A stretch of 64,000 bases of DNA from Thermodesulfobacteriota bacterium (GCA_049320885.1 JBMORA010000001.1:242622-306621), one strand, 5' to 3'; numbered from the stretch's first letter, positions 9,451 through 51,946 are shown. A program made the numbers and translations. Notes: generated from the letters alone by a model not told the origin.

Positions 9451-10220
9451 AAATCACCGTCATCCAGACCGATCTTTCCTGGGAAGACAGCCAACGCAAC
9501 CTGGCTGGCATCGGCGAAAAACTCCAAGGCCTTGGTGAGGAAACCCACCTGATCATCCTGCCGGAGATGTTCGCCACGGGATTCAGCATGAACGCGGCGA
9601 GCATCGCCCAGGACATGCAGGGACCCGCGGTCGCCTGGCTCCTGGAGCAGGCCGAAAAATCAAAGGCCGACATCGCCGGCAGCCTTGCCGTTCGGGAAAA
9701 GGGCCGTTTTTTCAACCGGCTGATCTGGGTCAGGCCTAGCGGGGACATCCTGACCTACGACAAGAAACACCTGTTCCGGTATGCCGGTGAAGAAAAGGTT
9801 TACACCGCCGGCGACCGGCTTCTGACGGTGGAATTGAACGGCTGGCGGATCCGGCCGTTCATCTGCTATGATCTGCGCTTTCCCTGCTGGTGCCGCAACT
9901 GGAACAAGGCCTACGACCTGGCCGTTTATGTCGCCAATTGGCCGGCCAAACGCGCTGCCCATTGGAAAGCGTTGCTGCCGGCCAGGGCCATCGAAAACCA
10001 GTGTTACGTAGCAGGCGTAAACCGGGTGGGAACGGACGGCAACGGGATGACTTACAGCGGCGACAGCGCCGTGATCGATCCCCTGGGAACCACCCTGTTT
10101 CAGAAAAGCAGCCTGGAATCCGTTCAAACAGTGGAACTTTCCTTGGCGCTGCTGCGGGAATACCGGCAACACTTCCCTGCCTGGATGGATGCCGACGATC
10201 CCGCACCCGCAGCTACATGA
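9438..10220 (+). CDS. yafV: Omega-amidase (carbon-nitrogen hydrolase)
   Basis: LPEMF, YDKKHLF and ICYDLRFP give the E-K-C triad; ARAIENQ; overlaps the ybdL stop. Confidence 0.85.
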   Translation: MRNLKITVIQTDLSWEDSQRNLAGIGEKLQGLGEETHLIILPEMFATGFSMNAASIAQDMQGPAVAWLLEQAEKSKADIAGSLAVREKGRFFNRLIWVRPSGDILTYDKKHLFRYAGEEKVYTAGDRLLTVELNGWRIRPFICYDLRFPCWCRNWNKAYDLAVYVANWPAKRAAHWKALLPARAIENQCYVAGVNRVGTDGNGMTYSGDSAVIDPLGTTLFQKSSLESVQTVELSLALLREYRQHFPAWMDADDPAPAAT

Positions 10221-12459
10221 AACTCTGAATATTGGCCAACCGTTTGGCCAGGTAGGACAACTCGCGCTGGGCGGCTGTCAGATATTCCCGATAGTCCCCC
10301 TTGCTTTCCGGGTTGAAGGAAGTCGATACGCAGGCAAAACGGATCTCGAAAGGCATCTCCTTGACAAGGAACTCGCGATCTTTCAGGAGGGAGGTGATCC
10401 GTGCCAGCGAAGTCCTGGAGTCGTCTTTGGACGTCATGGGTTGAATGACGATCAGCAGGCGGCTGTCGACGATCCCCACGATATCGGTGTCCCGCACGAT
10501 CTTCACCAGGTCTTCCATCACCGCGGAGGTGACATCCTCGCGCGAGATCGAACCCTGGGGCACGGCCTTTTTCGGCGTGACTTTCACGGGTGTCAGCACC
10601 AGGGTTGAAAAAGGCGTATGATACCGTTTTGCGCGGCGGATTTCGCTGTCCAGGATGAACAGGGTGCTGCCCTTGTTCAAGGTCCGTTTGGGGACGCTCT
10701 TCTCCTCGGTTTTCGCCTCCGGCGCGGCAACCATCTCCCGCCGCAATTGCTCGAAACGGTCTTCGGACATCCCCCGTTCCAGCATGGCCTTCTTCACATA
10801 TCCCAGGATGGCGTTGACTTCTTCTTCGGACGCCGCCTCGACACTCAAAATATTGCGGATAGCGGCTTTGCTGTCGGCCGTGTTTTCCCCGGAACGGAGT
10901 TTTCGAAGAACCAACTCGGATTTGAGCTGGCGCATGTTTTCCTCCAGCCGGGCCATGATCCGATATTCGATATCCTTCAGCATCGCGGCATCCAGTTGTT
11001 TGTTTTTCAAGGCTCCGATCAGGTCGTTTCTGGCTTTCGCGTACATGCCGTCCAGCTGTTTGCCTTCGGTTCCGGTTTCGGAGTCGGCTTCATCCAATGC
11101 CATGCGGCTGCCGACGGTTTCGATATACTCCACCAGAATTCCGGTCAACTCGCCCCGGTCGCCTCCGCCCCTCCGGATTTCCGAGGCCAGATAAATCAAT
11201 TCAGCCGCCTCCTTCGGATGTTCCAGGATTTCATGAATCAGGATGTCGCCTTCCAGTCCGATCTCCCTGGCGCTCTGATCCAGCATCCGGGATAGGTTGT
11301 CGCTCTGCAATTCCGCTTTCAATTCCTGGATCAGGTTATAGAAATCCGCTAGGGGCATGCCCTCGGTCATCAGCCCGTGGCGGATTTTCGGCAACAACCG
11401 CCGGAGTTCATCCGCTTCCGGAATCAGCCGCACGATAATCTGGGCCAGACGTCTGATGGGAACCTCGCCTTTCCGGTATTCCTCCTGGACGAGTCGGATC
11501 AACACCGAATCCGTCAGTTCGTCGATTTCCTTTCGGATATCGTTTTCGAATGGATAGACGGTTCCCAGCGCCTTCTGGGCCTCCAGACCTTTCAGCAGCC
11601 GGCCCTTCAGCTCCATCACCCCCTCGGCAAGTCGCTTCAGATCGACATCCGCGTCGCCGCCGCGACCCACCTTATTGCGAATGGATTGGATCTGGCGGAT
11701 GATCATGGGGCCGGGCGTCTGCCCCTTACCCCGATGTTGTTCGGCAAACGCCACATCCGCCCGGATCATCTCCGCGGATATGACTCCCGGATCTTCCAGC
11801 AGGGCGGCAATGGAAAATTGGTTCTCAAAAGACTCGGAAATCGCCTCCGCCATCATCATTCCCAGCACATCCTCCGTGGTGGGGCCGGTCACCTTCGCGC
11901 GCAGGTCAACCACTTCCCCCTGAACCATCCCGCCGATCCGGTTCCCACCCGACGGAATATCACCGTCCAATGCCGATAGCTGCTGCTGTAAACGCTCCCG
12001 CAAAACGACTTCTTCGTCCAGGGTAATTTTTTTAAAAATCACATAATTGATGGTGGCACTGGCGACCCCTTTTGTTTCCAGTGCTTTTTTCATGCTCTTT
12101 ACATCGGGGGTTCTTTTCGTATCGAATACAATCTCCACCAGTGTCTGCAATTCCTCCAGGGTCATCCGCCGCTCGAAGGAAATGGACTGAATTCCGGCCT
12201 TGACGAAATAATCCGCCAGACGCGCTGTATTGATATGATAATCGACGGGTTCGTCTTCGATGAAAAACTTCTCCTGATTCATGGAAAAAATGATGGGCGA
12301 CACTTTTTTGAATCCCTCCTTGAGGGCCTCGAAAAGCTGCTCCACCGACCGGACCACCGCCGGATGTCCGGGATGATACATGGCCGCCTGGTTATATACC
12401 AGATTCATGCTTCGGCCGATCTTATCGGCCGCCAGTTTGCTCAGTTCCGGTTGTTTCAT
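10213..12459 (-). CDS. Large helical protein with C-terminal degenerate GGDEF-like domain
   Basis: N-terminal YHPGHP...GIQSISF module; C-terminal LDSEIRRAKRYHTPFSTLVL...IVRDTDIVG with no GGDEF signature. Confidence 0.7.
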   Translation of the reverse strand: MKQPELSKLAADKIGRSMNLVYNQAAMYHPGHPAVVRSVEQLFEALKEGFKKVSPIIFSMNQEKFFIEDEPVDYHINTARLADYFVKAGIQSISFERRMTLEELQTLVEIVFDTKRTPDVKSMKKALETKGVASATINYVIFKKITLDEEVVLRERLQQQLSALDGDIPSGGNRIGGMVQGEVVDLRAKVTGPTTEDVLGMMMAEAISESFENQFSIAALLEDPGVISAEMIRADVAFAEQHRGKGQTPGPMIIRQIQSIRNKVGRGGDADVDLKRLAEGVMELKGRLLKGLEAQKALGTVYPFENDIRKEIDELTDSVLIRLVQEEYRKGEVPIRRLAQIIVRLIPEADELRRLLPKIRHGLMTEGMPLADFYNLIQELKAELQSDNLSRMLDQSAREIGLEGDILIHEILEHPKEAAELIYLASEIRRGGGDRGELTGILVEYIETVGSRMALDEADSETGTEGKQLDGMYAKARNDLIGALKNKQLDAAMLKDIEYRIMARLEENMRQLKSELVLRKLRSGENTADSKAAIRNILSVEAASEEEVNAILGYVKKAMLERGMSEDRFEQLRREMVAAPEAKTEEKSVPKRTLNKGSTLFILDSEIRRAKRYHTPFSTLVLTPVKVTPKKAVPQGSISREDVTSAVMEDLVKIVRDTDIVGIVDSRLLIVIQPMTSKDDSRTSLARITSLLKDREFLVKEMPFEIRFACVSTSFNPESKGDYREYLTAAQRELSYLAKRLANIQSFM

Positions 12460-12478
12460 TGTCCGCTGGTTTCTCCTT

Positions 12479-13372
12479 CTATCGGAGACAGTTTTTCTGA
12501 TACCATCTCAAGGCGTTGGCAAACGCGGCGCAGGTCCCGAAGCGTTTGCCCGGATGGTGGGCCACGGCTTTTTCAATGATCTGGTCCATCTTGACATTCA
12601 GGTTCGGATTCAGCGCGGAGGGCTTTTGACGGAAAATCCCCTCCACCGCGTCTTTCTTGTGTTTCAGCAAGTCCATGGGGGAATCGTATTCCGGCAGCGG
12701 CAATGTTCCCGCCGCCATCTGAAACAGCATGACGCCCGCGGCGTACACGTCCGCCCGCCTGTCGACGTTCGTCCCGGTGATCTGTTCAGGCGCCATATAC
12801 AGGGGTGTGCCCTGCAACAGGTCTTTTCCGGCGTCATCGCCCTTGAGAAACCTGGCAGTCCCGAAATCGGAGATGAGCGGCCTTTGGGTATGGGATTCGA
12901 TCAAAATATTGGCCGGTTTGATATCCCGGTGGACGATACCCTGTTGATGAGCGTAATCAAGGGCCTCCAGTACCTGGATGACGATGGCCAGGGTGCGTTC
13001 CAGGGGCAGAATCCGCCTGGACGGCAGCGGATGTCTCTGAATGTCCTGAATTTCCCTGGCCAAATCCCTTCCCTGGATCAGCTGCATGCTCATGAACAGG
13101 AATTCCGGCGTTTCGCCGACTTCATATATGGGAATGATATTCGGATGGGACAGAATCGCCGCGGCTTCCGCTTCCTGCTGGAAACGCTCGGCGGCCCTGG
13201 CGGTCATCATGACTTTGGGCAGAATCTTCACCGCGATCTGGCGTTTCAGGGTTTGTTGAAACGCCAGAAACACGATGGCCATGCTTCCCCTGCCGAGTTC
13301 CCTGAGGATCGTCGCGGTACCCACCTGAAAACCGATCAGGTGATGGACGTCATAGGATTGTATGGATGCCAT
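12479..13372 (-). CDS. Hanks-type Ser/Thr protein kinase (stand-alone catalytic domain)
   Basis: LGRGSMA, IAVK, HRDIKPANIL, DFG, GTPLYMAPE and DVYAAG. Confidence 0.93.
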   Translation of the reverse strand: MASIQSYDVHHLIGFQVGTATILRELGRGSMAIVFLAFQQTLKRQIAVKILPKVMMTARAAERFQQEAEAAAILSHPNIIPIYEVGETPEFLFMSMQLIQGRDLAREIQDIQRHPLPSRRILPLERTLAIVIQVLEALDYAHQQGIVHRDIKPANILIESHTQRPLISDFGTARFLKGDDAGKDLLQGTPLYMAPEQITGTNVDRRADVYAAGVMLFQMAAGTLPLPEYDSPMDLLKHKKDAVEGIFRQKPSALNPNLNVKMDQIIEKAVAHHPGKRFGTCAAFANALRWYQKNCLR

Positions 13373-13628
13373 ATCCCTTTGCGATCTTTCCGAAGGTGAC
13401 GTCATGAGTTGGAAAGTAAAACATCCGCCCTGCAGCCTGATCATATTAGACCAGGAAAGTGGAGATTGCAACTCGAAGCAAAACCGCCCCCGGAGCAATC
13501 GCATGGGAATTATCTGCCGCCTTTCTGTCTTTTCGTGTTTCATCTGCGGATAGTTTTATTTTTCTCTACCGATTTTTCCCCAATAATTTCATTGTTATAC
13601 AAATTTTTTCAGAACCGGAACATTGTCC

Positions 13629-13657
13629 TTGATTACAATAAACAAAATGTTTATTAT
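13629..13657 (+). promoter_or_regulatory. sigma70 promoter of higBA with overlapping operator palindrome
   Basis: TTGATT-17bp-TATTAT; inverted repeat AATAAACA-AAA-TGTTTATT at 13637-13655. Confidence 0.7.
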
Positions 13658-13663
13658 CGTTTG

Positions 13664-13945
13664 ATGATTAAATCGTTCCGTTGCCGCGAAACTGAAAAGA
13701 TATTCCATCGTGAATTTTCGAAAAAATTTCATCGGGATCTTCATGTTCAGGCCTTTATGAAACTTAATGCGATTGACGCGGCCGTGAATCTTGAAGACTT
13801 GCGGCAGCCTCCGTCCAACCACCTCGAAGCGCTAAGGGGGGACCGCAAAGGACAGTATAGCATCAGAATCAATGAGAGATGGCGCGTGTGTTTTGAATGG
13901 TGTAACGGCAATGCGGAACAAGTCGAATTTGTTGATTACCACTAA
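13664..13945 (+). CDS. higB: Type II toxin HigB (RelE/ParE superfamily)
   Basis: MIKSF...DLRQPPSNHLEALRGDRKGQYSIRINERWRVCFEW...VDYH. Confidence 0.92.
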   Translation: MIKSFRCRETEKIFHREFSKKFHRDLHVQAFMKLNAIDAAVNLEDLRQPPSNHLEALRGDRKGQYSIRINERWRVCFEWCNGNAEQVEFVDYH

Positions 13946-13955
13946 GGATGCCATT

Positions 13956-14270
13956 ATGACGAAACATCGAATTTCACCGATTCACCCTGGTATGTATCTG
14001 AAGGAATTACTCGACGAGTTACATATAACCCAATACCGTCTTGCTCAGGATTTGGGCGTGCCTGCAATGAGGATCAATCATGTTGTTCATTGTAAAAGAC
14101 CGGTAACGGCCGAGCTGGCATTGCGCTTGGGACGTTATTTTAATCAAAACCCTCGCTATTGGATTAATTTGCAAAGCCGGTATGATATGGATGTTGTCGA
14201 AGATGCTCTTGCAAAACAAATATCTCGTGAAATAAAACCATTGGCGACAAAATCCGGGCAAGGGCGATAA
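13956..14270 (+). CDS. higA: Antitoxin HigA (XRE HTH)
   Basis: PIHPG...RPVTAELALRLGRYF...YWINLQSRYD. Confidence 0.92.
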   Translation: MTKHRISPIHPGMYLKELLDELHITQYRLAQDLGVPAMRINHVVHCKRPVTAELALRLGRYFNQNPRYWINLQSRYDMDVVEDALAKQISREIKPLATKSGQGR

Positions 14271-14316
14271 CGCAGCCATATGGTTTGTAACCAAACAATT
14301 TTGCCGGAGTATTTCG

Positions 14317-15147
14317 ATGCCCCCTGAAGAAACCGCCATTGATGTCTGGATGCAGCATCCGAATCTGGATTTCATCAACCATGCCATGTTCGCCTCCCTG
14401 CGAAGGTGGATGGGCATGACGACGGTGACGGAACCGATCCCCGTGGAGTGGACCCTCGCGGCCATGGATCAGGGCCGGGTGGGAAGGGGTCTGATCAGCG
14501 CCTGGTGGGGTCCCCAGGGGCCGTTGATTGCCAACGAGGAAGTCGCCGGGCTGGTGGAACGGCATCCGGACCGCTTCATCGGCATCGGCGCGGTGGATCT
14601 GCACCGGCCCATGGCGGCGGTCCGGGAAACCCGCCGCTGCATCCGGGAGCTGGGTTTCAAGGGCATCCGCATTGTCCAGTGGTTCTGGAACCTGCCGCCC
14701 ACGGACCGGCTGTACTACCCGGTGTACGCGGAATGCGCGGCCCTGGAGGTGCCGGTCTGCCTGCAGGTGGGCCACACCGGCCCCCTCTGTCCGTCGGAGC
14801 CGGGCCGGCCCATTCCCTATATCGACCAGGTGGCCCTGGATTTCCCGGAGCTCAAATTGGTCTGCGGCCATATCGGCTATCCCTGGACCACGGAAATGAT
14901 CGCCGTGGCCACCAAACATCCCAATGTATTCATCGACACCTCGGCCTACACGGCCAGACGCTACCCCGGCGAGCTGGTGGAATACATGAAACGGAACGGT
15001 CGCAACAAGGTCCTCTTCGGCACCAACTACCCCATGATCACCCCGGCCAAATGCCGGGAGGATCTGGGCTCCCTCGGCCTGGACGACGAAACCTTGGCCT
15101 TGTTCCTGAGCGGCAACGCGGAACGGGTTTTTGCCATCGCCGATTAA
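14317..15147 (+). CDS. Amidohydrolase family protein (Amidohydro_2)
   Basis: IDVWMQHP, GHIGYPW, FIDTSAY and LFGTNYP. Confidence 0.85.
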   Translation: MPPEETAIDVWMQHPNLDFINHAMFASLRRWMGMTTVTEPIPVEWTLAAMDQGRVGRGLISAWWGPQGPLIANEEVAGLVERHPDRFIGIGAVDLHRPMAAVRETRRCIRELGFKGIRIVQWFWNLPPTDRLYYPVYAECAALEVPVCLQVGHTGPLCPSEPGRPIPYIDQVALDFPELKLVCGHIGYPWTTEMIAVATKHPNVFIDTSAYTARRYPGELVEYMKRNGRNKVLFGTNYPMITPAKCREDLGSLGLDDETLALFLSGNAERVFAIAD

Positions 15148-17141: not shown

Positions 17142-18257
17142 TCAGCCCGCACCGCCGGATGATTCGGTTTGATAATCGTAGCGCCCTTCATTGCGGCGGA
17201 TATTGCGTTTTTCCCATTCCTGGCGGTCGTTGTTGAAATGCCGCATCAAAACCGGCAGCCGCTGCAGCACCCCCAGCTCCGACGACGGCCTCCAATCCAG
17301 CAGCGCATGCGTGTATCCGGCATCCACGATCAGCGGCCGGTCCACATAGTCCAGCATCCAGCGCCGTTCATAACGGCGTTGCCCCAGCAGAACCTTGAAG
17401 CGGTTGCGGATGAACAAGGCCATGCCGGCGGCAACGGGTGGAACAAAGATCGGCCGCGCCGCGGAATCGAACCCCATCCCCTCGCGGATGAGGGGGAAGA
17501 GTTCCCGGTGAAGCGTGCAGCCGCTGGGGGCGGCAAACAGTCTTTCCAGCGGCGCCAGCCGGTGGGATGCCTGAAGCACCTTCCGGACCGCCCGCACCAG
17601 ATCGTCTCGATGGATATAAGGAAAACCGGAGGTCCCCTGCCCCGGCACCATCCTTCCGCTGGGCATGGGGCTGCTCCACATTCTGATCAGGCTGTACAGG
17701 GGCGGCAGTTCGCACCAGTCGCTGAATACGCCGCCGATGCGCAACGAAACGCAGGGGATGCGATCATGGTAGTCCATCAGCATGGTTTCACCCAGCGCCT
17801 TGGATCTGGCGTAGGCCACCTGCCCGACGGGAGTGGATTTTTCCGTCAGCATCCGTCCCGGAGGCGGCGGCGGAAGGGAGGCGATGCTGCCGGCGAAAAC
17901 AAACCGTTTGGCATTGACGGCCACGGCTGCATCCAGGGTGTTTCTCAACCCGGCCACATTGATCCGTCCGTATTCCGGCAGCCATCGTTTTCCATAATGA
18001 TAAAACGCCGCCAGGTGTATGACAACATCAACCCCGCCATACCGTTCCCCCATTCGGCTGGTCCAGTCGACCAAGCTGCGGGCATGGGTGATGTCGACGC
18101 CACCCCATTCCGCTCCCCGGGCCTGGTTTCTCAGATCCCGGGAAGGCGGCCGCCGGTCCAGCCCCAACACCATATGATCGCGGCAAAGATCCACGCATAT
18201 GGCCGACCCCAGGTAACCGGAAGAACCGGTGACCAGGACGACGGGAAGACGGTTCAT
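17142..18257 (-). CDS. NAD-dependent epimerase/dehydratase (extended SDR)
   Basis: VLVTGSSGYLG, VIHLAA and YARSK (YxxxK). Confidence 0.85.
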   Translation of the reverse strand: MNRLPVVLVTGSSGYLGSAICVDLCRDHMVLGLDRRPPSRDLRNQARGAEWGGVDITHARSLVDWTSRMGERYGGVDVVIHLAAFYHYGKRWLPEYGRINVAGLRNTLDAAVAVNAKRFVFAGSIASLPPPPPGRMLTEKSTPVGQVAYARSKALGETMLMDYHDRIPCVSLRIGGVFSDWCELPPLYSLIRMWSSPMPSGRMVPGQGTSGFPYIHRDDLVRAVRKVLQASHRLAPLERLFAAPSGCTLHRELFPLIREGMGFDSAARPIFVPPVAAGMALFIRNRFKVLLGQRRYERRWMLDYVDRPLIVDAGYTHALLDWRPSSELGVLQRLPVLMRHFNNDRQEWEKRNIRRNEGRYDYQTESSGGAG

Positions 18258-18320
18258 GGATTTCACCAGGCGCTCCTCCGTAATGGGATGGAATTTTTGC
18301 CACACTTTATTATCAACATA

Positions 18321-18441
18321 TTGTTTTGTAAATAAATTACGGATATAATGCAAGGAAATTTCACCACCGGCGACGCCCTGGAAAAGCAGGCGAGGATAGG
18401 ACAGGAAACAACTTGCTGAACTTTAATCGATTTGGTATAGT
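18321..18441 (+). promoter_or_regulatory. Two tandem sigma70-like promoters upstream of the actin-like gene
   Basis: TTGTTT-17-TATAAT (18321-18349) and TTGCTG-17-TATAGT with extended -10 TG (18413-18441). Confidence 0.45.
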
Positions 18442-18726: not shown

Positions 18727-19818
18727 ATGGTCGACAAAAACAAGAAGCCCCTCAAGAAGGACGCTGCCGAGATGGTCCAGGCATTTGAACAGATTTTGAA
18801 GCAACCGGAGGAAACCTCGGAGCTGAGCCAGAACGCCATCGGCGTGGATATCGGGACTTCGAAAACCGTCTACGCCGTGAATGGTAAAGAGAGCGGAAGC
18901 AAGGATTATTTTTCCCAACTGAACGCCTTCATCGAGGTCCCCTACTCCCGTTTTACTGAAAACATATTGAAACAAAACAAAATCCACCATTACAAACTCG
19001 GGAACTCCCTCATCGTGTACGGTGACGGCGCGGAACTCTTCGCCAACATGCTGAATACCGAAACCCGGCGCCCCATGCGCAACGGCCTCCTGAACGCCAA
19101 GGAAGCCAATGCCATTGAAATCATGAAGGGCATTCTGGACGACATGATCCCCTCCGCCGCCCTGCCCAATACCCCGCTCTGCTTTTCCATCCCCGGAGCG
19201 CCGAAGAATGCCACAACGGATATCATCTATCACGAGGCGATTCTGAAACGCCATCTGGATGAAAAAGGCTTCAAATCCCGAAGCATCAACGAGGGCATGG
19301 CGGTTGTTTTTTCAGAACTGGAAAAGGAGAATTTCACCGGGTTCGGCATCAGCTGCGGCGGCGGGATGTGCAATGTCTGCCTGTCCTATCTCTCCATCCC
19401 GCATATCACCTTCAGCATCATCAAGGGCGGGGATCATATCGACGATGCAGTGGCCTCGGTCACCAATGAGGTCAACACCCGCATCCGGGATATCAAGGAG
19501 AATCAGCTCGATCTGCTGGCGAAGGCGGACAATGAGATCGAGGACGCCCTGCAGATCTATTATGATGATCTCATCCGGACGCTGATCCGCTCCATGAAGG
19601 AGAGTATTGAACAGACGTCGAAGATTCCAAAATCGGATGCCCCCGTCCCGATTGTGCTCAGCGGCGGCACGGCCAAACCGAACGGATTCAGGGAGCGGTT
19701 TGAAAAATGCCTGAAAGAGGTGGACTTCCCGCTGGAAATCAGCGAAATCCGGCTGGCCAAGGACCCGCTGAAAGCCACCGCCAACGGCGCCCTGATCGCC
19801 GCCATGTACGAAGGTTGA
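18727..19818 (+). CDS. Actin-fold ATPase, volactin-like
   Basis: Phosphate-1 GVDIGTSK, connect-1 INEGMAV, phosphate-2 ISCGGGMCN, adenosine LSGGTA and connect-2 DPLKATANGA; strong GGAGG RBS. Confidence 0.85.
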   Translation: MVDKNKKPLKKDAAEMVQAFEQILKQPEETSELSQNAIGVDIGTSKTVYAVNGKESGSKDYFSQLNAFIEVPYSRFTENILKQNKIHHYKLGNSLIVYGDGAELFANMLNTETRRPMRNGLLNAKEANAIEIMKGILDDMIPSAALPNTPLCFSIPGAPKNATTDIIYHEAILKRHLDEKGFKSRSINEGMAVVFSELEKENFTGFGISCGGGMCNVCLSYLSIPHITFSIIKGGDHIDDAVASVTNEVNTRIRDIKENQLDLLAKADNEIEDALQIYYDDLIRTLIRSMKESIEQTSKIPKSDAPVPIVLSGGTAKPNGFRERFEKCLKEVDFPLEISEIRLAKDPLKATANGALIAAMYEG

Positions 19819-19940
19819 CAAGGATTGACGGACGCGGTTTTTTTCGGCGAAGCGAACGATAATGTCTGCTCCCCGGATTCCGGATTTCATCTGATCGGTA
19901 TCGTGGCGACCGATACGGATTGAAAGGGAGTTTATTGTCC

Positions 19941-21407
19941 ATGATCCAACTCTCCGAACCCGAAAGAATACCGCCGAAGGAGTATCGGCAGCGAATCGAA
20001 AAACTGGCGGAGCAAATCTCCGATCCGGTAAAAAAACTGCGATTCATTCATCAGGCCCTTGCCGACTATTCGCTAAACGAATCCGTTGAAAGCGGGGGAA
20101 AACATCGACGGAAAACGGAAGCGGCAAAAGGCGGGGAGTCCCTGTTTCGCAAAAACGGCAACCACCGGCCGGAGGAAACCGGAGGCGCGGAATACCGGCT
20201 CCAGCCGCCCCTCGCCGGCAAATCCCGCCATTACTTGGTGTATCTGGTCTGCGGCATGGGGGTGATGCTCTTCGGATTTGCCTTTATCCTGTTCCTTTCG
20301 AACGGAAGCCGGTATGGAAACCTTTTCGGTAAAACCGCTGCAAAAACCGAAACCGATGTCTTTCATTATATCATCCCGACGGTGACGTCGGAATTGTCCC
20401 CGGCGCCGGTTTTTCCCAAAGCCTTGCCGGGAGAGGATGCGCAGAAGCCGCCGGCATTCCCCGAATACCTGGACACCCTGATCTGGATGATCGAAAAGAC
20501 AGCCGAAAGCGAGTATTACAGCAACCGGTTGCGGATCCACACCGGCCAAACCGTCGACAACACCCCCCGGCGCTACCGCCGGATTCCGATCCAGGCCGCT
20601 TCCAGCCCGAATGACTGGCCGGCCACCGGCAACGTGGCCGGCATTCTGTTCCATGCCGCGGAAAGCGACATCTATGAGTTCAAGCCGGAAATGACGCAAT
20701 CCATCAAGGAATACAGCCGTCTGCTGGCCCGGTATCTCCGGAAAAAAAAAGCCTATCACTATTTTATCGACCGGTTCGGCGAGGTCTACCGCTTGGTCCG
20801 CGAGGATCATGCCGCCTATCACGCGGGAAATTCGATCTGGGCCGATTCGGAAAACATTTACCTGGATTTAAACAATGCCTTCATCGGGATCTGTTTCGAA
20901 GGCAAGGATTTCGAGCACAACCCCAAGGGAAAGTCGAAAACCGGCGGGAACGGCGACTCGACTCACATCGTTGCCATGGCGCAATCCTCCATCAATGAGG
21001 CCCAGTTGCGGTCGGGAAAGGAGCTGACCGACTGGTTGCGGGTGAAATACCGCATTTCGCAGAAAAACTGCGTGCCCCACGCCCTGGCATCGGTGAACCC
21101 ATACGATCTGCTGATCGGACATCATCTGGACTTGTCATATGAGTTCCCGTTTGATATGTTTGGGTTGAGCAACAAATATGAAGAACCGATTCCTGCCATT
21201 ACCGAATTCGGGTTTTCCTGTAACAACTATTTTGTCCAGGTCATGAAGGGGAGGCTCTGGCCCGGCATTATCCGTTCCGAGGAAACCCTTCGGCAGCGCG
21301 CCGATGAAACAAAAATACCGCTCAAGGAATATCGAAAACTCCTGAACAACCGGTTCGCCGGATTGTTCAAATGGCAAAAACAGATCAAACAATCCGAAGG
21401 GTCCTGA
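19941..21407 (+). CDS. Membrane-anchored N-acetylmuramoyl-L-alanine amidase (Amidase_2/PGRP-like)
   Basis: One TM helix; ILFHAAES, YHYFIDRFGEVYRLV, AYHAGNSIW, NNAFIGICFEG, EAQLRS and VPHA. Confidence 0.82.
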   Translation: MIQLSEPERIPPKEYRQRIEKLAEQISDPVKKLRFIHQALADYSLNESVESGGKHRRKTEAAKGGESLFRKNGNHRPEETGGAEYRLQPPLAGKSRHYLVYLVCGMGVMLFGFAFILFLSNGSRYGNLFGKTAAKTETDVFHYIIPTVTSELSPAPVFPKALPGEDAQKPPAFPEYLDTLIWMIEKTAESEYYSNRLRIHTGQTVDNTPRRYRRIPIQAASSPNDWPATGNVAGILFHAAESDIYEFKPEMTQSIKEYSRLLARYLRKKKAYHYFIDRFGEVYRLVREDHAAYHAGNSIWADSENIYLDLNNAFIGICFEGKDFEHNPKGKSKTGGNGDSTHIVAMAQSSINEAQLRSGKELTDWLRVKYRISQKNCVPHALASVNPYDLLIGHHLDLSYEFPFDMFGLSNKYEEPIPAITEFGFSCNNYFVQVMKGRLWPGIIRSEETLRQRADETKIPLKEYRKLLNNRFAGLFKWQKQIKQSEGS

Positions 21408-21498
21408 AACCGATCGGGCAGGACGCCGTCACCGTCTCCCTGAACCGGAGATTCCGCCACGCCTGACCGAATCGAGAAAAAAATGGAGCCATACGTGC

Positions 21499-22452
21499 AT
21501 GAAGACGCTCAAAAGGAATTGCCCGCATTGCCAGAGTGAAAAAACCGCCCCCATCCCCCAAACATCCGTCGCCAGACTCATCGGTTACTTGGTACCCCGC
21601 CGACCCTATTTATGCCTGGATTGCCGGAAGCGTTTCAACCAGTATGAAAATCCGCTGAAAACCGTATCCGCCAAAATCATGGCCGGCGCCGCAGCCGTTC
21701 TGCTCCTGTTGATCCTTTTCCTTGTGATGCGGCCCCAAACCCCGCAACCGCAGCCGGAAGAACAGGCCCCCTCCATGAGAATCCCCGCCAAGCAGGCGGA
21801 ACCGGAAGCCATGCAAATCCCCAAAATGCCGTTGGAGGAAAAGGGTGCGCCCTTGCCTTCCGGAGAAACGGCCGAGGCCTTGCCGAACCCGAATCAGCCG
21901 GAAGCGGTTCCCGTTCCAACGGCAGATCAGCCGCTGCCCGCCGAAACCGCCCCCCCGGCAAAGGCCCCGGCATTGGAACAGCAGCAGCCGGTCGCCCCAA
22001 CGGCGGAAACACCCGTGAAACAACTGCCGGAGGGACCCCGGCCGATTCCGGCCGCGGTGACTCCCGGAACGGAGTCCACACCCGGTGACAGAAGGGAACG
22101 CGTGACGGCTTCCCCCCATGCGAACCAGCCAAGAACCCTGAAACGCATTTCCGTCCAAAATACCGATAACGGTCCGACCATCCATATCCAGGCGGACGGT
22201 CCCATCGATGCCCATCAATCCTTCTTGCTCCCCGACCCGCATAGACTGGTCATCGACCTTGCGGGGAAATGGGAAAAACCCGGATTTTACGCCATGGCGG
22301 TGGAACACGATCTCATCCGGTCGGTCCGGGTATGGAAACATGATAAAAAGCTGCGGATCGTCTGCGATCTGCAATCCGGCCTGGGGCGGGAACCGGTTTT
22401 TAAAACAGCTTCCGACGGCTTGGTCGCCGAGTTGGGCGCAACGCCCCCCTGA
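21499..22452 (+). CDS. Zn-ribbon + TM + Pro-rich linker + AMIN domain protein
   Basis: CPHC...CLDC, hydrophobic helix, P/A/E-rich spacer, then FLLPDPHRLVIDL...IRSVRVWKH..KLRIVCDL. Confidence 0.8.
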   Translation: MKTLKRNCPHCQSEKTAPIPQTSVARLIGYLVPRRPYLCLDCRKRFNQYENPLKTVSAKIMAGAAAVLLLLILFLVMRPQTPQPQPEEQAPSMRIPAKQAEPEAMQIPKMPLEEKGAPLPSGETAEALPNPNQPEAVPVPTADQPLPAETAPPAKAPALEQQQPVAPTAETPVKQLPEGPRPIPAAVTPGTESTPGDRRERVTASPHANQPRTLKRISVQNTDNGPTIHIQADGPIDAHQSFLLPDPHRLVIDLAGKWEKPGFYAMAVEHDLIRSVRVWKHDKKLRIVCDLQSGLGREPVFKTASDGLVAELGATPP

Positions 22453-22482
22453 CGTTATCGAAAACGGAAAGGAAACGGATGG

Positions 22483-23577
22483 ATGGTCGAACGAACCGAC
22501 GAAATGGCACCGCGCTTGCCGAAGGTCACCACAAAGTTGAAAATGCCCGGCATGCTCCTGAAGTTACCAGGCGCCGTCAAACTGGCCATCGCCGCGCTGG
22601 TGGTGCTGATGATCGCCTTTAATGCCCTGTTCACCTATGTGCAGCCCAATGAATTCGGCATCAAGGTCGTGCGCATCGGTATCAACCGGGGAGTCCAGAA
22701 GGAAATTTACACGGCCGGTCTGCACTGGGTCATCCCCGGTTTTCAGCAGATCTTCCGCCTGCCGCGGGACATTCAGGTTTTGGAGCTGACAGCGTCGCCG
22801 AAGACCGCTGCCCTGCCGGCCCGGAAGGATCGGGTCGCCCATATTCAGACATCGGACGGTTTTTATGTGGATGTGGATGTTTCCATCCTGTACCGGATCA
22901 ATGACCCCTTTCTCGTGTTCACCAAAATCGGCCCCGGCAGCCTGTATGAGGATAACGGGATTCTGCCGAAGGCGGAGCCCGCTCTCAAGGAAACCTTGGG
23001 CAAATTGACCACCGAAGATTTTTACAACAGCCCCTTGCGGGTGAAGAAGGCACGGGAAGCGCGGGAACTGCTGAATGCGGAACTGAATCCGAAAGGCATC
23101 CAGGTTGAGCAGGTGCTGGTGCGCTATTTCGTTTACAGCCCCGAAATCCAGAAAAACATCGAGGAGAAAAAGCTGAAGGATCAGCTGGTGTTTACGAACC
23201 AGGCCGCGGCCCGGGCCGCCAAGGAAGAGGCGGAATTGAAAAAAGTCATCCAGGAGGGTCTCGTGATGGTGGATGTGGAGCTCGAACAGGGCCGGGCCTA
23301 TGTCACCCGCAAGGAAGCGGAAAAAGATCTGTATGTGCGGACCAAAAAAGCCGAAGCCGACCTGCTGGTGAAACTGGCGGATGCGGAAAAAGTCCGTTTG
23401 AAAAACGATGCCATGAAAGGCGTCGGTTCCGAACGGATGGTGGGCTTAAAAATGGCGGAAGTGTACAAAGGGCTGGATCTCATCGTTCTGCCCAGCGACG
23501 GCAGCGGCGGCGTCAATCCCCTTGATTTGAACAATGCCTTGAACCTATTTGATGTCCGCAAGGGAGATACGCCATGA
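22483..23577 (+). CDS. SPFH/band 7 domain membrane protein
   Basis: N-terminal TM, YVQPNEFG, GLHWVIPG, QTSDGFYVDVDVSILYRI and A/E-rich coiled coil. Confidence 0.85.
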   Translation: MVERTDEMAPRLPKVTTKLKMPGMLLKLPGAVKLAIAALVVLMIAFNALFTYVQPNEFGIKVVRIGINRGVQKEIYTAGLHWVIPGFQQIFRLPRDIQVLELTASPKTAALPARKDRVAHIQTSDGFYVDVDVSILYRINDPFLVFTKIGPGSLYEDNGILPKAEPALKETLGKLTTEDFYNSPLRVKKAREARELLNAELNPKGIQVEQVLVRYFVYSPEIQKNIEEKKLKDQLVFTNQAAARAAKEEAELKKVIQEGLVMVDVELEQGRAYVTRKEAEKDLYVRTKKAEADLLVKLADAEKVRLKNDAMKGVGSERMVGLKMAEVYKGLDLIVLPSDGSGGVNPLDLNNALNLFDVRKGDTP

Positions 23578-24641
23578 AACGCTTCCTGTTCCTTGCCTTC
23601 CCGCTGATCTGCTGTCTCTGCCTGCCGGCTTGCCTGCTGTACAGCACCGGCGAAAACGAAGTGGGCGTACGTACCCGGAAACTGGCCATCTGGGGACCGC
23701 CGGGGGTCGAGGAGCAGGTTTATGCCCCGGGCTCCACCCATGTGTTTCTGCCCTTCATCAATGACTGGCACACCTTCGACACCAAACTGCAGAATCTTGA
23801 AATGGTCTATGAACCGTCACGCGGAGAGCGCCGGACCCATGATGATCTGCTGTTCAAGAGCATCGACGGCAACGATATCGGACTGGACGTCATCATCGCC
23901 TACCGCATCGACGCCGCACAAGCACCTTACATCCTGCAGCATGTGGCCGTCGACAACCACACCCTGCGGGAAAAGATCGTCCGCACCATCGCGCGCAGCA
24001 AACCCCGCGATATCTTCGGCGAGTTGACCACCGAAGAATTTTACGTGGCGGAAAAACGGGAACTGCAGGCCCAGAAAGCCAAGGAAGTGCTCCAGGAGAT
24101 GCTCGGCCCGATGGGGATCATCGTCGAAAAAGTGCTCACCAAGGATTACCGGTTCAATCGCGAATACCAGAAGGCCATCGAGGACAAAAAAGTCGCCGAT
24201 CAGCAGGTGCAGAAAAACAAATCCGCCCGGCATGCGGCCCTGGAGGAATACAAGCGCAAACTGGAGGAAGCCAAGGGCGAGGTGAACAAGATGATCGCCG
24301 ACGCGGACGGCGCCTATCGCAGAGCCAAAATCGAGGCCGATGTATACTACGAGCGGCAGCAGATGATGGCGGAGGCCATCAAGGCGGAAGGAATCGCCGA
24401 AGCCAAAGGCATCCAGGAGATGAACAACGCCCTGGCCGGTTCGGGTGGCGAAGCGCTCGTCAAACTGCGCATCGCCGAGGCCCTTCAGGACAAGAAAATC
24501 ATGCTGCTGCCGGTATCCACCGGGGGGATGAACCTGAAAACAACGGATATCAACCGGCTGATTGAAACCATGGGAATCCGCGCCATGGCCGGAAACGATT
24601 ACAAGCAACGCAGTGTCGAAAAAGCAACCGATACAAGATAA
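23574..24641 (+). CDS. SPFH/band 7 domain membrane protein
   Basis: ENEVGV, PGSTHVFLPF, KSIDGNDIGLDVIIAYRID and YQKAIEDKKVA coiled coil; ATGA overlap with the upstream paralog. Confidence 0.85.
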   Translation: MKRFLFLAFPLICCLCLPACLLYSTGENEVGVRTRKLAIWGPPGVEEQVYAPGSTHVFLPFINDWHTFDTKLQNLEMVYEPSRGERRTHDDLLFKSIDGNDIGLDVIIAYRIDAAQAPYILQHVAVDNHTLREKIVRTIARSKPRDIFGELTTEEFYVAEKRELQAQKAKEVLQEMLGPMGIIVEKVLTKDYRFNREYQKAIEDKKVADQQVQKNKSARHAALEEYKRKLEEAKGEVNKMIADADGAYRRAKIEADVYYERQQMMAEAIKAEGIAEAKGIQEMNNALAGSGGEALVKLRIAEALQDKKIMLLPVSTGGMNLKTTDINRLIETMGIRAMAGNDYKQRSVEKATDTR

Positions 24642-45970: not shown

Positions 45971-46344
45971 CGGAAAGACCTCCAGATTGTAATGATGGCG
46001 GTTCTGAAAAAATCCGGAACAATTGATCTCAGGCTGGACAATTAACAATAAGGATCGGGTGAAACGGATGCAGGAAACTGTAAAATAGCCTGACAGGATA
46101 GCAAGTTAGCATTGCCTGCTCGTCCAAGCAAGAATAATGTTGGAACTGTTTGTCTGGATGAGATGAATCGCTGAAAATGAGATGGCCGTCACGAAACGGA
46201 AAAGTGGCGGAATCTCCAGCTTTGTGATAGCATGCGCCCCATCGCCCGTCGGCTTCCCGTCAGGGGCAGGCTGTCATCGTCTTCCGAACAACCGCAACCA
46301 TGCAAACGGGGATATCAGACCATATCCCCCCAAGGGGATTCGCA

Positions 46345-49300
46345 ATGAAAAAGACCGTCTTGGCGCTATGGCTCTTGGTTTTCACTTCCATCCTGTTCCC
46401 CGCCGGCTGTGAAAAAAAGGAGGAAGTCCAACCCATCGGCCCGCCCGATCCGAAAATCGTCTCGTATCATTCCGACGATCGCATCTCGCGGCAGGGACCG
46501 ATCAAGGTGGTTTTCACCAGCGATCTGGCAGCCCCCCACCTGATCGACCAGGTTCTGGAGCCGTCCCCGTTCACCTTCACTCCGGCCATCACTGGCAAGG
46601 CTCTTTTCCAGAACCCGCGGACCCTGGTCTTCATCCCCTCCCCCCGACTGCCCGGCGGAAATAATTTCGACGTCAGCGTCGATATGACGGCCTTTCTGCC
46701 CAAGGAAGCCGAGAACGCGGTTTTCGGTTTCAAGTTCCGGACCATCGAACCGGATTTCGACATCACCCATGACAATCTGGAACCGGTGGCCCCCGACAAA
46801 TTGCAGTTCCAGCGGCTCACGGGCAAGATCACCACGGCCGACACGGCCGAGGCCGGGGAAGTCGAAAAAGTCCTGAAGGCCGTCCAGGAAGGGAAAGCCC
46901 TTGCCGTCACCTGGACCCATGCCGGCGACAAACGCAGTCATCTCTTCACCGTGGACGGCATCCAGCGCGGCGAAAATCCCTCCCAGGTGGAGCTGACCTG
47001 GGACGGCGCTTCCATGGAGGTCAAGAAAACCGGGAAAGAAACCATCGAGGTACCGGCCCTGCAGGCGTTTTCCATGTCCGGTTTTCAGGTCCTGGAAAAA
47101 GAGGAGCGCCATCTCGCCGTCCAATTTTCCGACCCCCTGGAAAAAAATCAGGACCTGCGGGGTCTCATCCGCGTCGGTAATCTGACGGAACTGCGCTTTG
47201 AAATCATCGACAACAGTGTCCATATTTACAGCCTGACGGGTCTGTCCGGCAGCAACACCGTGTCGCTGGAACCGGGCATCCGCAACTCCATGGGCAAAAA
47301 ACTGCCGGAACCGGTTTCCTTCGAGGTGAATTTCGAGCCCATGAAACCCCAGGTCCGTTTTGCCGGCAAGGGGGTCATTCTGCCCACCTCCCGGGAACTC
47401 GTCCTGCCCATCGAAGCGGTCAACCTCCGGGCCGTGACCGTTTCGGCGCTCCACATCTACGAGACCAGCATCCCCCAGTTTCTTCAGGTCAACACCCTGG
47501 ACGGCGAGAAGGAACTGAAACGCGTGGGCCGGACGGTCTGGAAAAAGAAGATCCCCCTGGAAACGCCGCCGGACAAAAACAACCAATGGGTCCGCTACGG
47601 GCTGGATCTCGCGAGTCTCGTGGAAAAGAACACCCACGGCATTTTCCGTCTGCAACTCACCTTCGGCAGGGAGGACATCATCTACCCCTGCAAGGGCGAG
47701 CCGGCGCCCCTGAAAAACGCCGCCCCATCCGCCCTTCCCGATGCGACGGAAACGGACAGCGAGGACGACGAGCTGGAAGACAGCCTCTGGGATTCCGTTG
47801 AAAACTACTACGGGGATTCGGAATACGAGGATTCCTATGACCAGCGGACCAACCCCTGCAGCCGCAGCTATTACCGCAGGTATTACGACCATAACATCAC
47901 CGTGGCCCGCAACGTGCTGATCTCGGATATCGGCCTCATCGCCAAACGCGGGACGGATAAGATCCTTTTCGCGGCGGCCACCGGCATCCGCAGCGCCGCC
48001 CCCCTCGCGGGGGCCGAGCTGACGCTGCTGGACTACCAGCAACAGGTGATCAGCCAAGGCAAGACCGATGAGCAGGGCCTGGCGCGGCTGTCTTTCGAAC
48101 GCAAGCCCTACCTCCTGGTAGCGAACCAAAACGGCCAGACTGCGTATCTGCGGGTGGACGACGGACAGGCCCTGTCCCTGAGCCATTTCGACATCGCCGG
48201 CCAGGAAGTCACGGAGGGAATGAAAGGCTTCATCTACGGCGAGCGCGGGGTATGGCGGCCGGGCGACACCATTTTCCTGACCCTGATTCTCCTGGATGAA
48301 ACCCGTACCCTCCCGGCCACCCACCCGGTGGTCTTCGAACTGCGCAACCCCAAAGGCCAGATCGTCAAGACCCATCAGACCCGGGAGGCGTTGAACGGGT
48401 TTTACTGTTTTCAGACCGCCACCGCCGAAGACGCCCCCACCGGCACCTGGACCGTGCGCGCCAAGGCGGGCGGTGCCGTTTTCGAGAAAAGCCTGAGAAT
48501 TGAAACCGTGATGCCCAACCGCTTGAAAGTGAAGCTGGACCTGGGTCCCGAAGGCACGCAGCTCGAAGGCGGCACCATCCAGGGAGAACTTTCGGCCGCC
48601 TGGCTCCACGGCGCCATCGCCAAAAACCTGAAAAGCGATGTGGAATTGAATTTCAGCGCCGTCAAAACCACCTTTAAAAACCATGAGGAATATGTCTTTG
48701 ACGACCCCGCCCGGGAGTACCAACCGGAACGACAGACTGTTTTCGAAGGCAGCCTGGACGAAAACGGCCGGGTGGCGATCAAGGCCGAGATCAGCGCCAA
48801 AAATCTCTCCCCGGGGATGCTCAGCGCGGATTTCCGAACCAGGGTGTTTGAATACGGCGGCGCGTTCAGCGTCGATCGGGTCAGCTACCCCTATCATCCG
48901 TATCAGCGCTATGTGGGCCTGCGTCTTCCACCCGGAGACAGCGCCCGGAACATGCTGCTGACCGACACCAGGCACCCGGCCCGTATCGTCCTCCTGGATC
49001 CCCGGGGGAAACCGGTTCCCAAAGGCCGGGTCAAGGTCGAGCTGGCCAAAATCAAATGGCGCTGGTGGTGGGACAAGGGCGCCGATGAACTGGCCGGTTT
49101 TGCCTCGGGGGACGAGTATCGGCCCATGGCTGCCACGGAGCTGGAGGTCGTGAACGGCCAGGCCGAATGGCCTTTTGAAATCAAGTATCCGGAATGGGGA
49201 CGTTTCTTCGTCCGGGTCACGGATCTGGAAGGCGGTCATTCCACCGGCCGGACCTTTTACGCGGATTGGCCCGGCTGGGCCGGCAGAGGCCGGCAGGACA

Positions 49301-51921: not shown

Positions 51922-51946
51922 AAACTTGCGGCGGAGATGGTTTCAC

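Follow-up and report, generated by a model that had tools for sequence, protein, structure and literature searches.

What would an actin-fold ATPase be doing beside a gene for a membrane-anchored enzyme whose catalytic region is predicted to face the cell wall? This question is raised by a locus of a Thermodesulfobacteriota bacterium (GCA_049320885.1 JBMORA010000001.1:242622-306621). The stretch analysed, here called the window, is 64,000 nucleotides (nt) long, and between positions 18,727 and 24,641 it carries five open reading frames (ORFs) on the + strand, spaced by 122, 91, 30 and -4 nt (Table 1). These encode, in order, a Volactin-family actin, an Amidase_2 protein, a Zn-ribbon/AMIN protein and two SPFH proteins. 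A sequence-only reading of the same DNA had listed these five co-directional genes and their gaps, with ORF coordinates that agree exactly with those reported here, and each of its domain calls (actin fold, amidase, AMIN and two SPFH) is matched by a Pfam family above its cut-off. It had also proposed that all five genes form one envelope-remodelling system. Five genes in one direction are unremarkable alone; the signal that departs from chance is the conservation of the first two genes across phyla. The core of the locus is a two-gene module, composed of the Volactin-family actin and the bitopic amidase, to which a third gene is added in a lineage-specific manner. In the reading favoured here, which we regard as probable, filaments of the actin bind the N-terminal tail of the amidase and thereby place or gate cleavage of the wall in the periplasm, with the AMIN protein as the lineage-specific third member.

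The linkage of the two core genes was established from the neighbourhoods of homologues. Window proteins were searched by tblastn against 80 loci carrying actin relatives, taken from species-representative genomes (handles beginning with L denote loci and those beginning with G genomes). In 69 of the 80, the amidase gene is the same-strand neighbour of the actin gene, and the order of the two is swapped between two phyla: the amidase lies downstream of the actin in 37 loci (Desulfobacterota/Desulfobacterales) and upstream in 32 (Acidobacteriota). The recurrent actin-amidase linkage that the sequence-only reading had put forward, and for which it had named this kind of check, therefore holds. 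The 11 loci without an adjacent amidase comprise five with less than 1.4 kb of sequence downstream and two with less than 300 nt upstream (contig ends), together with four that encode a paralogous actin fused to an HU domain. The amidase and actin ORFs overlap by 4 nt in L073 and L084, and are separated by 14 nt in L015. Two of the module-bearing loci, L014 and L055, derive from metagenome-assembled genomes labelled Desulfosudis oleivorans. When sampled loci were scanned with Pfam, Volactin was accompanied by an Amidase_2 protein of 448-645 residues (aa) in 9 of 11 Desulfobacterota loci, and the pair was found in 9 of 10 Acidobacteriota-type loci lacking the HU fusion. The amidase reading frame is split between ORFs in L047 and L049, whilst in L061 the frames were merged in the ORF call and the amidase was still found by tblastn; ORFs of the high-GC Acidobacteriota loci were called on the same strand only.

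The presence and absence of the two genes also coincide. Across 41 relatives, the same 12 genomes carry the actin and the amidase, as neighbours on one contig, and the other 29 carry neither. In a set of 301 evenly sampled Acidobacteriota genomes, the actin was found in 10 and the amidase in nine, all of them within those 10 and with the genes adjacent, and no amidase was detected among the 291 genomes devoid of the actin. A tree of 44 actins, drawn with a midpoint root for display only, unites all amidase-linked actins of both phyla and the HU-fused ones in one clade (support 100/99). Within it, the HU-fused actins are sister to the amidase-linked group of Blastocatellia (100/98), and Volactins of further Desulfobacterota without a neighbouring amidase are placed outside the clade. 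The actin-amidase pair is sparsely distributed: of 401 genomes sampled evenly across the window's phylum, 11 carry Volactin, and Haloferax volcanii was the only one of 14 control genomes with a Volactin at E <= 1e-20.

Table 1. Features of the locus, in window coordinates (TM, transmembrane)
Feature	Position	Strand	Basis or context
Divergent epimerase gene	17142-18353	-	Upstream neighbour of actin
Purine-rich ribosome-binding stretch before actin start codon	18710-18724	+	Read from sequence
Volactin-family actin-fold ATPase, 363 aa, core member 1	18727-19818	+	Pfam PF25216
Bitopic Amidase_2 protein, 488 aa, core member 2	19941-21407	+	Pfam Amidase_2 (PF01510)
Conserved, predicted cytoplasmic N-terminal motif of amidase, aa 11-36, putative actin-docking peptide	19971-20048	+	Alignment
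Predicted single TM segment of amidase, aa 98-119	20232-20297	+	Read from sequences
Conserved, predicted periplasmic catalytic region of amidase, aa 178-450	20472-21290	+	Model, Foldseek, alignments
Bitopic Zn-ribbon/AMIN protein, 317 aa, lineage-specific third member	21499-22452	+	Pfam AMIN
SPFH/Band_7 protein 1 (SPFH1), 364 aa, N-terminal TM segment, neighbour outside module	22483-23577	+	Band_7 102.6 bits vs 23.6
SPFH/Band_7 protein 2 (SPFH2), 355 aa, lipoprotein-like N-terminus, neighbour outside module	23574-24641	+	Band_7 79.1 bits vs 23.6

The first gene product matches the Volactin profile over positions 2-321 of 321 with 263.9 bits (cut-off 35; E 3e-78), and the phosphate-1, phosphate-2 and adenosine motifs of the actin fold (D41, G43, T44, G205-G213 and G313-G314) are invariant in 16 homologues. 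The solved folds nearest to its AlphaFold model (predicted local distance difference test, pLDDT, 87.1) are Mbl/MreB, MamK and BeeR, at 15-20% identity, with actin also among the top folds and the MreB-RodZ complex 2wus among the nearest; because these folds are so distant in sequence, no close relative of the window actin appears to exist among solved structures. Three more familiar identities were rejected. The protein scores 19.5 bits against the NCBIfam MreB model NF010539 (cut-off 293), and MreB_Mbl is not among its Pfam hits at E <= 0.01; it reaches 36.7 bits against a MamK cut-off of 400, with no magnetosome genes among its neighbours; and it lies far below the cut-off for salactin. The earlier description of this actin as a non-MreB protein is thus sustained, and a separate, canonical MreB is encoded elsewhere in the genome (contig C3, 496 bits). 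Also encoded in this genome (5.6 Mb in 68 contigs, 98% complete) are FtsA, PilM and a further MreB-like protein, as well as two Amidase_3 enzymes, of which one carries AMIN domains. As the organism possesses its own MreB, FtsA and Amidase_3 genes, the module is an addition to these systems and not a replacement for them. The Volactin-family actin presumably polymerises in the cytoplasm.

The second gene product matches Amidase_2 with 58.7 bits (cut-off 26) and is encoded by the sole Amidase_2 gene in the genome. Its conservation is unevenly spread along the chain. Near the N-terminus, aa 11-36 form a motif with the consensus ...E...I.DP..KLRF..., in which L33 is invariant in both phyla (19 sequences aligned); conservation per 10-residue block is 0.46-0.55 here, compared with 0.22-0.35 in the stretches on either side, and the motif was recovered separately by tblastn in L049 and L078. 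No Pfam family matches aa 1-100. The remainder of the tail, to approximately aa 97, is poorly conserved, and conservation of the hydrophobic segment that follows is weak; the Lys/Arg/His residues on the N-terminal side of this segment suggest, by the positive-inside rule, that the tail lies in the cytoplasm. The linker to approximately aa 177 shows no conservation, which becomes strong from aa 178. Both this protein and the AMIN protein had been described earlier as single-pass, and one hydrophobic stretch can be read from the sequence of each. The motif at aa 11-36 may be a site on which the actin docks. A second, semi-conserved segment (~YRLYP...LAE.A.RK), predicted to be cytoplasmic, is present between the tail motif and the TM segment in most other Desulfobacterales homologues and absent from the amidases of the window, L014 and L015 (window 19941-20240 against alignment columns 250-320).

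The conserved C-terminal region consists of an N-terminal beta subdomain, an Amidase_2 core containing H238, E320, H380, H395 and D397, and C-terminal helices. A model of aa 165-488 (pLDDT 90.8) retrieved AmpDh2 (4bpa, E 5.8e-7) as the top Foldseek match, followed by AmpD and AmiD (range 6e-7 to 1e-5), with T7 lysozyme and peptidoglycan recognition proteins (PGRPs) as further fold matches. In AmiD, AmpD and T7 lysozyme, zinc is held by a triad of His, His and Asp/Cys, with a catalytic Glu and a Lys placed two residues before the third ligand. The five core residues of the window amidase are invariant in the 19 aligned sequences and also in a set of 33; in profile alignments E320 and H380 correspond to AmiD's catalytic Glu and second zinc His, and in eight homologues the Pfam match begins at the H238 motif.

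In the third gene product, an AMIN domain, which targets septal-type wall, occupies aa 217-293 (22147-22377; PF11741, 32.8 bits, cut-off 20.5). It is preceded by a CxxC...CxxC pattern (Cys8, Cys11, Cys39 and Cys42; 21520-21624), a predicted TM segment at aa 60-77 (21676-21729) and a Pro-rich linker, an arrangement that would place the cysteines in the cytoplasm and the AMIN domain in the periplasm; Zn-ribbon families match aa 1-64 only below their cut-offs (E 0.007-0.02). An AMIN homologue directly follows the amidase in 9 of the 12 actin-bearing relatives, so the linkage of this gene to the pair, also claimed earlier, is real in this lineage. In Blastocatellia-type loci (10 by tblastn, three by Pfam), a Zn-ribbon/SPOR protein is encoded just upstream of the amidase, comprising an N-terminal CxxC...CxxC Zn-ribbon, one TM segment, a long linker and a C-terminal SPOR domain. 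SPOR domains are described as binding glycan strands stripped by amidases (PMC6895207). The recurrence in a second phylum of the same architecture with a different wall-binding domain argues that the third protein is a real but replaceable partner. Neither bitopic protein qualifies as RodZ, there being no helix-turn-helix (HTH) or other Pfam match in aa 1-100 of the amidase and only sub-threshold Zn-ribbon hits in aa 1-64 of the AMIN protein, although both may be RodZ-like in their working; an FtsN-like SPOR identity was likewise rejected for the window's third protein, whose domain is AMIN and not SPOR. In some loci that lack the actin (L119:4423-7656, L121:2378-5936 and L122:4818-7391), a homologous bitopic AMIN protein is encoded next to a cytochrome c biogenesis gene of the ResB-like type, and some of these loci carry AMIN genes in tandem.

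Taken together with the predicted topology, these features suggest how the module could operate. Cytoplasmic actin filaments would hold the conserved tail of the amidase, and perhaps also the putative Zn-ribbon of the third protein, and this binding would set the site or the timing of amidase action on the wall. The zinc-dependent Amidase_2 part would then cut peptide stems off peptidoglycan in the periplasm, whilst the AMIN protein, or the SPOR protein in Blastocatellia, would keep the complex on amidase-processed or septal-type peptidoglycan. The tail is proposed as the binding site for the filaments because its motif is the sole conserved cytoplasmic element of the amidase and the actin is the sole conserved cytoplasmic neighbour.

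A number of observations weigh against this interpretation. The labelled sources of the comparison loci are almost all metagenome-assembled genomes, and related genomes are not independent, so that the figures above are to be read as counts and not as statistics. One Acidobacteriota genome (G639) carries the actin with no amidase detected, and in another (G720) the two genes lie on opposite strands, 1.5 kb apart. The AMIN protein family is broader than the module, because bitopic AMIN proteins of the same family, of approximately 300 aa, occur in nine relatives without the actin (one of these hits lying in a 989-aa ORF), and three of six such loci examined have the protein beside ResB. Conversely, no match to the AMIN protein was found in the actin-bearing genomes G005 and G036, and the only hit in G004 lies in a 1101-aa ORF on another contig. 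Between the AMIN and SPFH genes of the window there is no terminator-like site, so that all five genes may be co-transcribed here. Finally, the Pfam and PDB-profile alignments of the amidase end at H380, with the third zinc ligand lying beyond them, and the usual Lys-x-Asp/Cys is replaced by an invariant His-x-Asp (H395-x-D397) located 15-17 residues past H380. Because this ligand is non-canonical, enzymatic activity is not assured; we propose that D397 acts as the third ligand, with H395 in place of the usual Lys, after an insertion.

The same region of the amidase invites a reading in which information flows from the outside in: the Amidase_2/PGRP-like domain would mainly read peptidoglycan or muropeptides and, instead of being positioned by the actin, signal the state of the wall across the membrane to the actin or to neighbouring regulators. 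Such a sensor would be compatible with the non-canonical third-ligand region, with the presence of PGRP structures among the fold matches and with the name 'peptidoglycan recognition family protein' given to some homologues by NCBI. Also in its favour are the genes that follow the pair in certain lineages, namely those for a histidine kinase and a sigma-54 regulator in Blastocatellia loci and for STAND-type ATPases in Vicinamibacteria. However, the catalytic Glu, both aligned zinc histidines and the invariant His-x-Asp are kept in all 33 sequences, a degree of retention that, to our knowledge, is unusual for non-catalytic PGRPs, and the regulator genes are lineage-specific, being absent from the Desulfobacterota loci examined. 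We consider a mainly sensory role unlikely.

Of similarly low probability is a model in which the actin and the amidase are co-regulated but never in contact, both serving one process, such as daughter-cell separation or a developmental change of shape, within an operon that ensures co-expression only. Conserved linkage and co-occurrence demand a shared function and not physical contact, and the amidase has been kept although unlinked from the actin in G441, where it lies on a different contig from an HU-fused actin, and on the opposite strand in G720. Against this, a tail motif conserved across phyla needs a cytoplasmic ligand, and the actin is the sole cytoplasmic protein conserved alongside it; moreover, the two genes are translationally coupled in several lineages.

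The proposal that all five genes, including an SPFH heteropair acting as a membrane scaffold, constitute a single envelope-remodelling machine fares considerably worse. In its favour, the SPFH pair begins 30 nt after the AMIN gene in the window and in its congener G002 (L013), with no terminator-like site predicted in the gap. Yet, among the 27 Desulfobacterota loci with at least 6 kb of downstream sequence, SPFH is linked to the actin in just one, that of this 91%-identical relative, and is absent near the actin of L014, which is 89% identical. SPFH1 occurs in 15 of the 41 relatives, but only G000 and G002 have it next to the actin; in six (G001, G004, G005, G012, G016 and G017) it is carried on contigs other than the actin's, seven relatives devoid of the actin possess it, and it was not found in four that bear the actin. 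The two SPFH genes, which overlap by 4 nt in the window, are themselves kept together in 12 of 12 loci at 68-85% identity, accompanied by the amidase and AMIN genes in two and alone in the other 10. The distribution of the genes thus largely refutes the five-gene model, which we regard as very unlikely. The inclusion of the SPFH pair by the sequence-only reading is not supported and falls by the refuting condition set in that reading itself: the pair occurs independently of the actin, and together with the downstream iron-sulphur (Fe-S) gene it forms a separate unit that has only recently come to lie by the module. The window proteins are generic SPFH proteins, a designation as HflK/HflC being rejected by the NCBIfam equivalog cut-offs (hflC 20.9 bits vs 134.4; hflK 33.8 vs 159.4). 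Scarcely credible, lastly, is an origin of the pair as the relic of a phage lysis cassette or mobile element, with an endolysin-type amidase and a phage-type actin: Amidase_2 is a common endolysin fold, but the flanks are housekeeping genes, the only integrase-family gene nearby is XerC-like and stands beside hslVU, within each phylum the actins branch in accordance with taxonomy, the sequence composition shows no strong break, and the amidase, unlike soluble endolysins, is bitopic with a conserved cytoplasmic tail.

Comparison with known systems suggests that the actin-amidase module follows a logic like that of MreB-RodZ and, more closely still, like that of FtsA and FtsN with the septal amidases, although none of its proteins belongs to those families. 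As in MreB-RodZ, a cytoplasmic actin-fold filament would engage the N-terminus of a single-pass protein and, through it, enzymes acting on the wall in the periplasm. The module differs in that its actin is not MreB, its membrane partner is itself an enzyme, and a hydrolase rather than a synthase, the tail of this partner lacks an HTH and no mreCD, rodA or pbp2 genes are adjacent. The septal loop of Escherichia coli likewise joins an actin-fold protein to a bitopic one, in which a cytoplasmic tail and a TM segment are followed by a low-complexity linker and, at the C-terminus, a domain that binds septal peptidoglycan; there, amidases are described as making the product that the C-terminal domain of FtsN binds (PMC6895207; 10.1101/2024.05.13.594014). 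The third protein of Blastocatellia, with its SPOR domain, matches FtsN in this respect, whereas that of the window has AMIN and a putative Zn-ribbon tail. Two further differences are that the amidase of the module is a membrane-anchored Amidase_2 and not a soluble Amidase_3, and that the genome has its own FtsA, with no link of the module to FtsZ or FtsWI seen. That an actin homologue can direct a peptidoglycan hydrolase has been described for MreBH-LytE of Bacillus subtilis (PMC3817527), which serves as a precedent. Unlike the window amidase, LytE is a secreted endopeptidase and not a bitopic amidase, and its gene and that of MreBH are not known to share a conserved operon. The best profile and fold matches to the catalytic core, AmiD, AmpDh2 and AmpDh3, share its aligned catalytic Glu and second zinc His but have no cytoplasmic tail and are either lipoproteins or soluble; relative to them, the window family adds the N-terminal beta subdomain and the C-terminal helices, and its His-x-Asp, which comes after an insertion, stands where they have Lys-x-Asp.

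The namesake of the actin family is Volactin (VolA, HVO_2015) of H. volcanii, which matches the same Pfam family. It is reported to form dynamic filaments whose tips touch the membrane (PMC10869688), and its gene is described as lying beside that of a membrane protein, the CdpA-like HVO_2016 (PMC12126565). Haloferax, however, has no peptidoglycan and no amidase partner, and its membrane neighbour is a protein of a different family with four TM segments; unlike Haloferax volactin, the bacterial clade is tied to a wall hydrolase. Other actins are more remote: Bbp, a further non-MreB, non-MamK actin of Desulfobacterota, which was compared by description only, is reported in an operon with a hypothetical protein and a Kelch-domain protein (PMC10580974), without an amidase, and both the ParM-type chromosomal actins (PMC12270681) and FcmB (PMC12645912) are presented as members of different families with different partners.

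Volactins were also encountered in other contexts. A distant member (38% identity) from another Desulfobacterota family (L096:1863-5409 and L100:7782-11165) is followed by a 130-147-aa ORF without a family match and then by a class A penicillin-binding protein (PBP; Transgly + Transpeptidase), which constitutes a second link of a Volactin with a wall enzyme. This PBP and the Haloferax context fit a view of the Volactin family as membrane- and wall-coupled actins in general. The HU-fused paralogue (423-470 aa; L065:9560-10972, L075:9731-11002, L083:9629-10972 and L092:9650-10972) carries an HU/Bac_DNA_binding domain at its N-terminus and comes mostly from loci labelled Acidobacteriota, L065 being labelled Clostridia. 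It has no adjacent amidase; the genes that come after it are a CcsA-like one, for cytochrome c assembly, and hemA. The fusion of an actin to a nucleoid protein suggests filaments linked to DNA. In loci of the Vicinamibacteria type (L054, L060, L061, L070 and L079, at ~11100-14700), ATPase genes follow the amidase-actin pair; these encode a TPR + AAA_16/STAND ATPase of ~820 aa and an AAA_22/nSTAND protein of ~350 aa, found by tblastn in 19 and 17 of the 80 loci, respectively.

A bolder proposal, which we advance tentatively but as a serious possibility, is that Volactin filaments, a bitopic amidase and an AMIN or SPOR reader make up a dedicated wall-cleavage cytoskeleton in at least two phyla, operating as a self-contained loop of the FtsA-FtsN-amidase type apart from the divisome and the elongasome; the HU-fused form of some Acidobacteriota, in which the amidase is retained elsewhere in the genome, would then tie the nucleoid to the splitting of the wall. 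As a kind of system, cytoskeleton-coupled wall remodelling is already known, whilst the actin-amidase pair itself appears to be undescribed in the literature found. Among the matches listed, publications on volactin concern haloarchaea or mention it in passing, with no description of the pair, and none describing it was found among those combining actin-like proteins with amidases, Acidobacteria or Desulfobacter. The control of wall synthesis by the cytoskeleton, through MreB and FtsA, is well known, but how wall hydrolases are placed and restrained is much less understood, and the proposed mechanism, if true, would offer a direct case, amenable to testing, of wall cleavage controlled from the inside out. 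Bacterial members of a family so far studied only in haloarchaea would also gain a first functional context. As a compact module of two or three genes, in organisms that retain MreB and FtsA, the system should lend itself to transfer between hosts and to deletion studies.

With regard to expression, the start codons as chosen agree with the lengths of homologues, and the 373-nt gap between the actin gene and the divergent epimerase gene is likely to be the promoter region. No promoter was called on the + strand of this gap, promoter-like sites in the scan being no commoner than in shuffled sequence, and no terminator-like site was found on the + strand by scanning the intergenic gaps of the five-gene run; Rfam gave no match at E <= 0.1 between positions 17000 and 27000. 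The run is embedded amongst ordinary chromosomal and housekeeping genes. Upstream, on the opposite strand, the epimerase gene is followed by one for an OYE/Usp oxidoreductase, and downstream lie the Fe-S protein gene and then those for CoaBC, UDG, XerC, HslVU and arginine synthesis. The ORFs scanned over ~8-36 kb of the window contained no mreC/mreD, pbp2/rodA, ftsZ, plasmid or magnetosome domains, in keeping with the earlier statement that such genes are not adjacent. Further from the module, the - strand carries a Ser/Thr protein kinase gene (12479-13543) and, immediately after it, a 748-aa ORF without a Pfam match (together 10213-13543). On the + strand, the gene for a bacterial alpha-2-macroglobulin (1873 aa) precedes one for a PBP1C-type transglycosylase/transpeptidase that has a BiPBP_C domain (46300-54406), a pairing that is already known.

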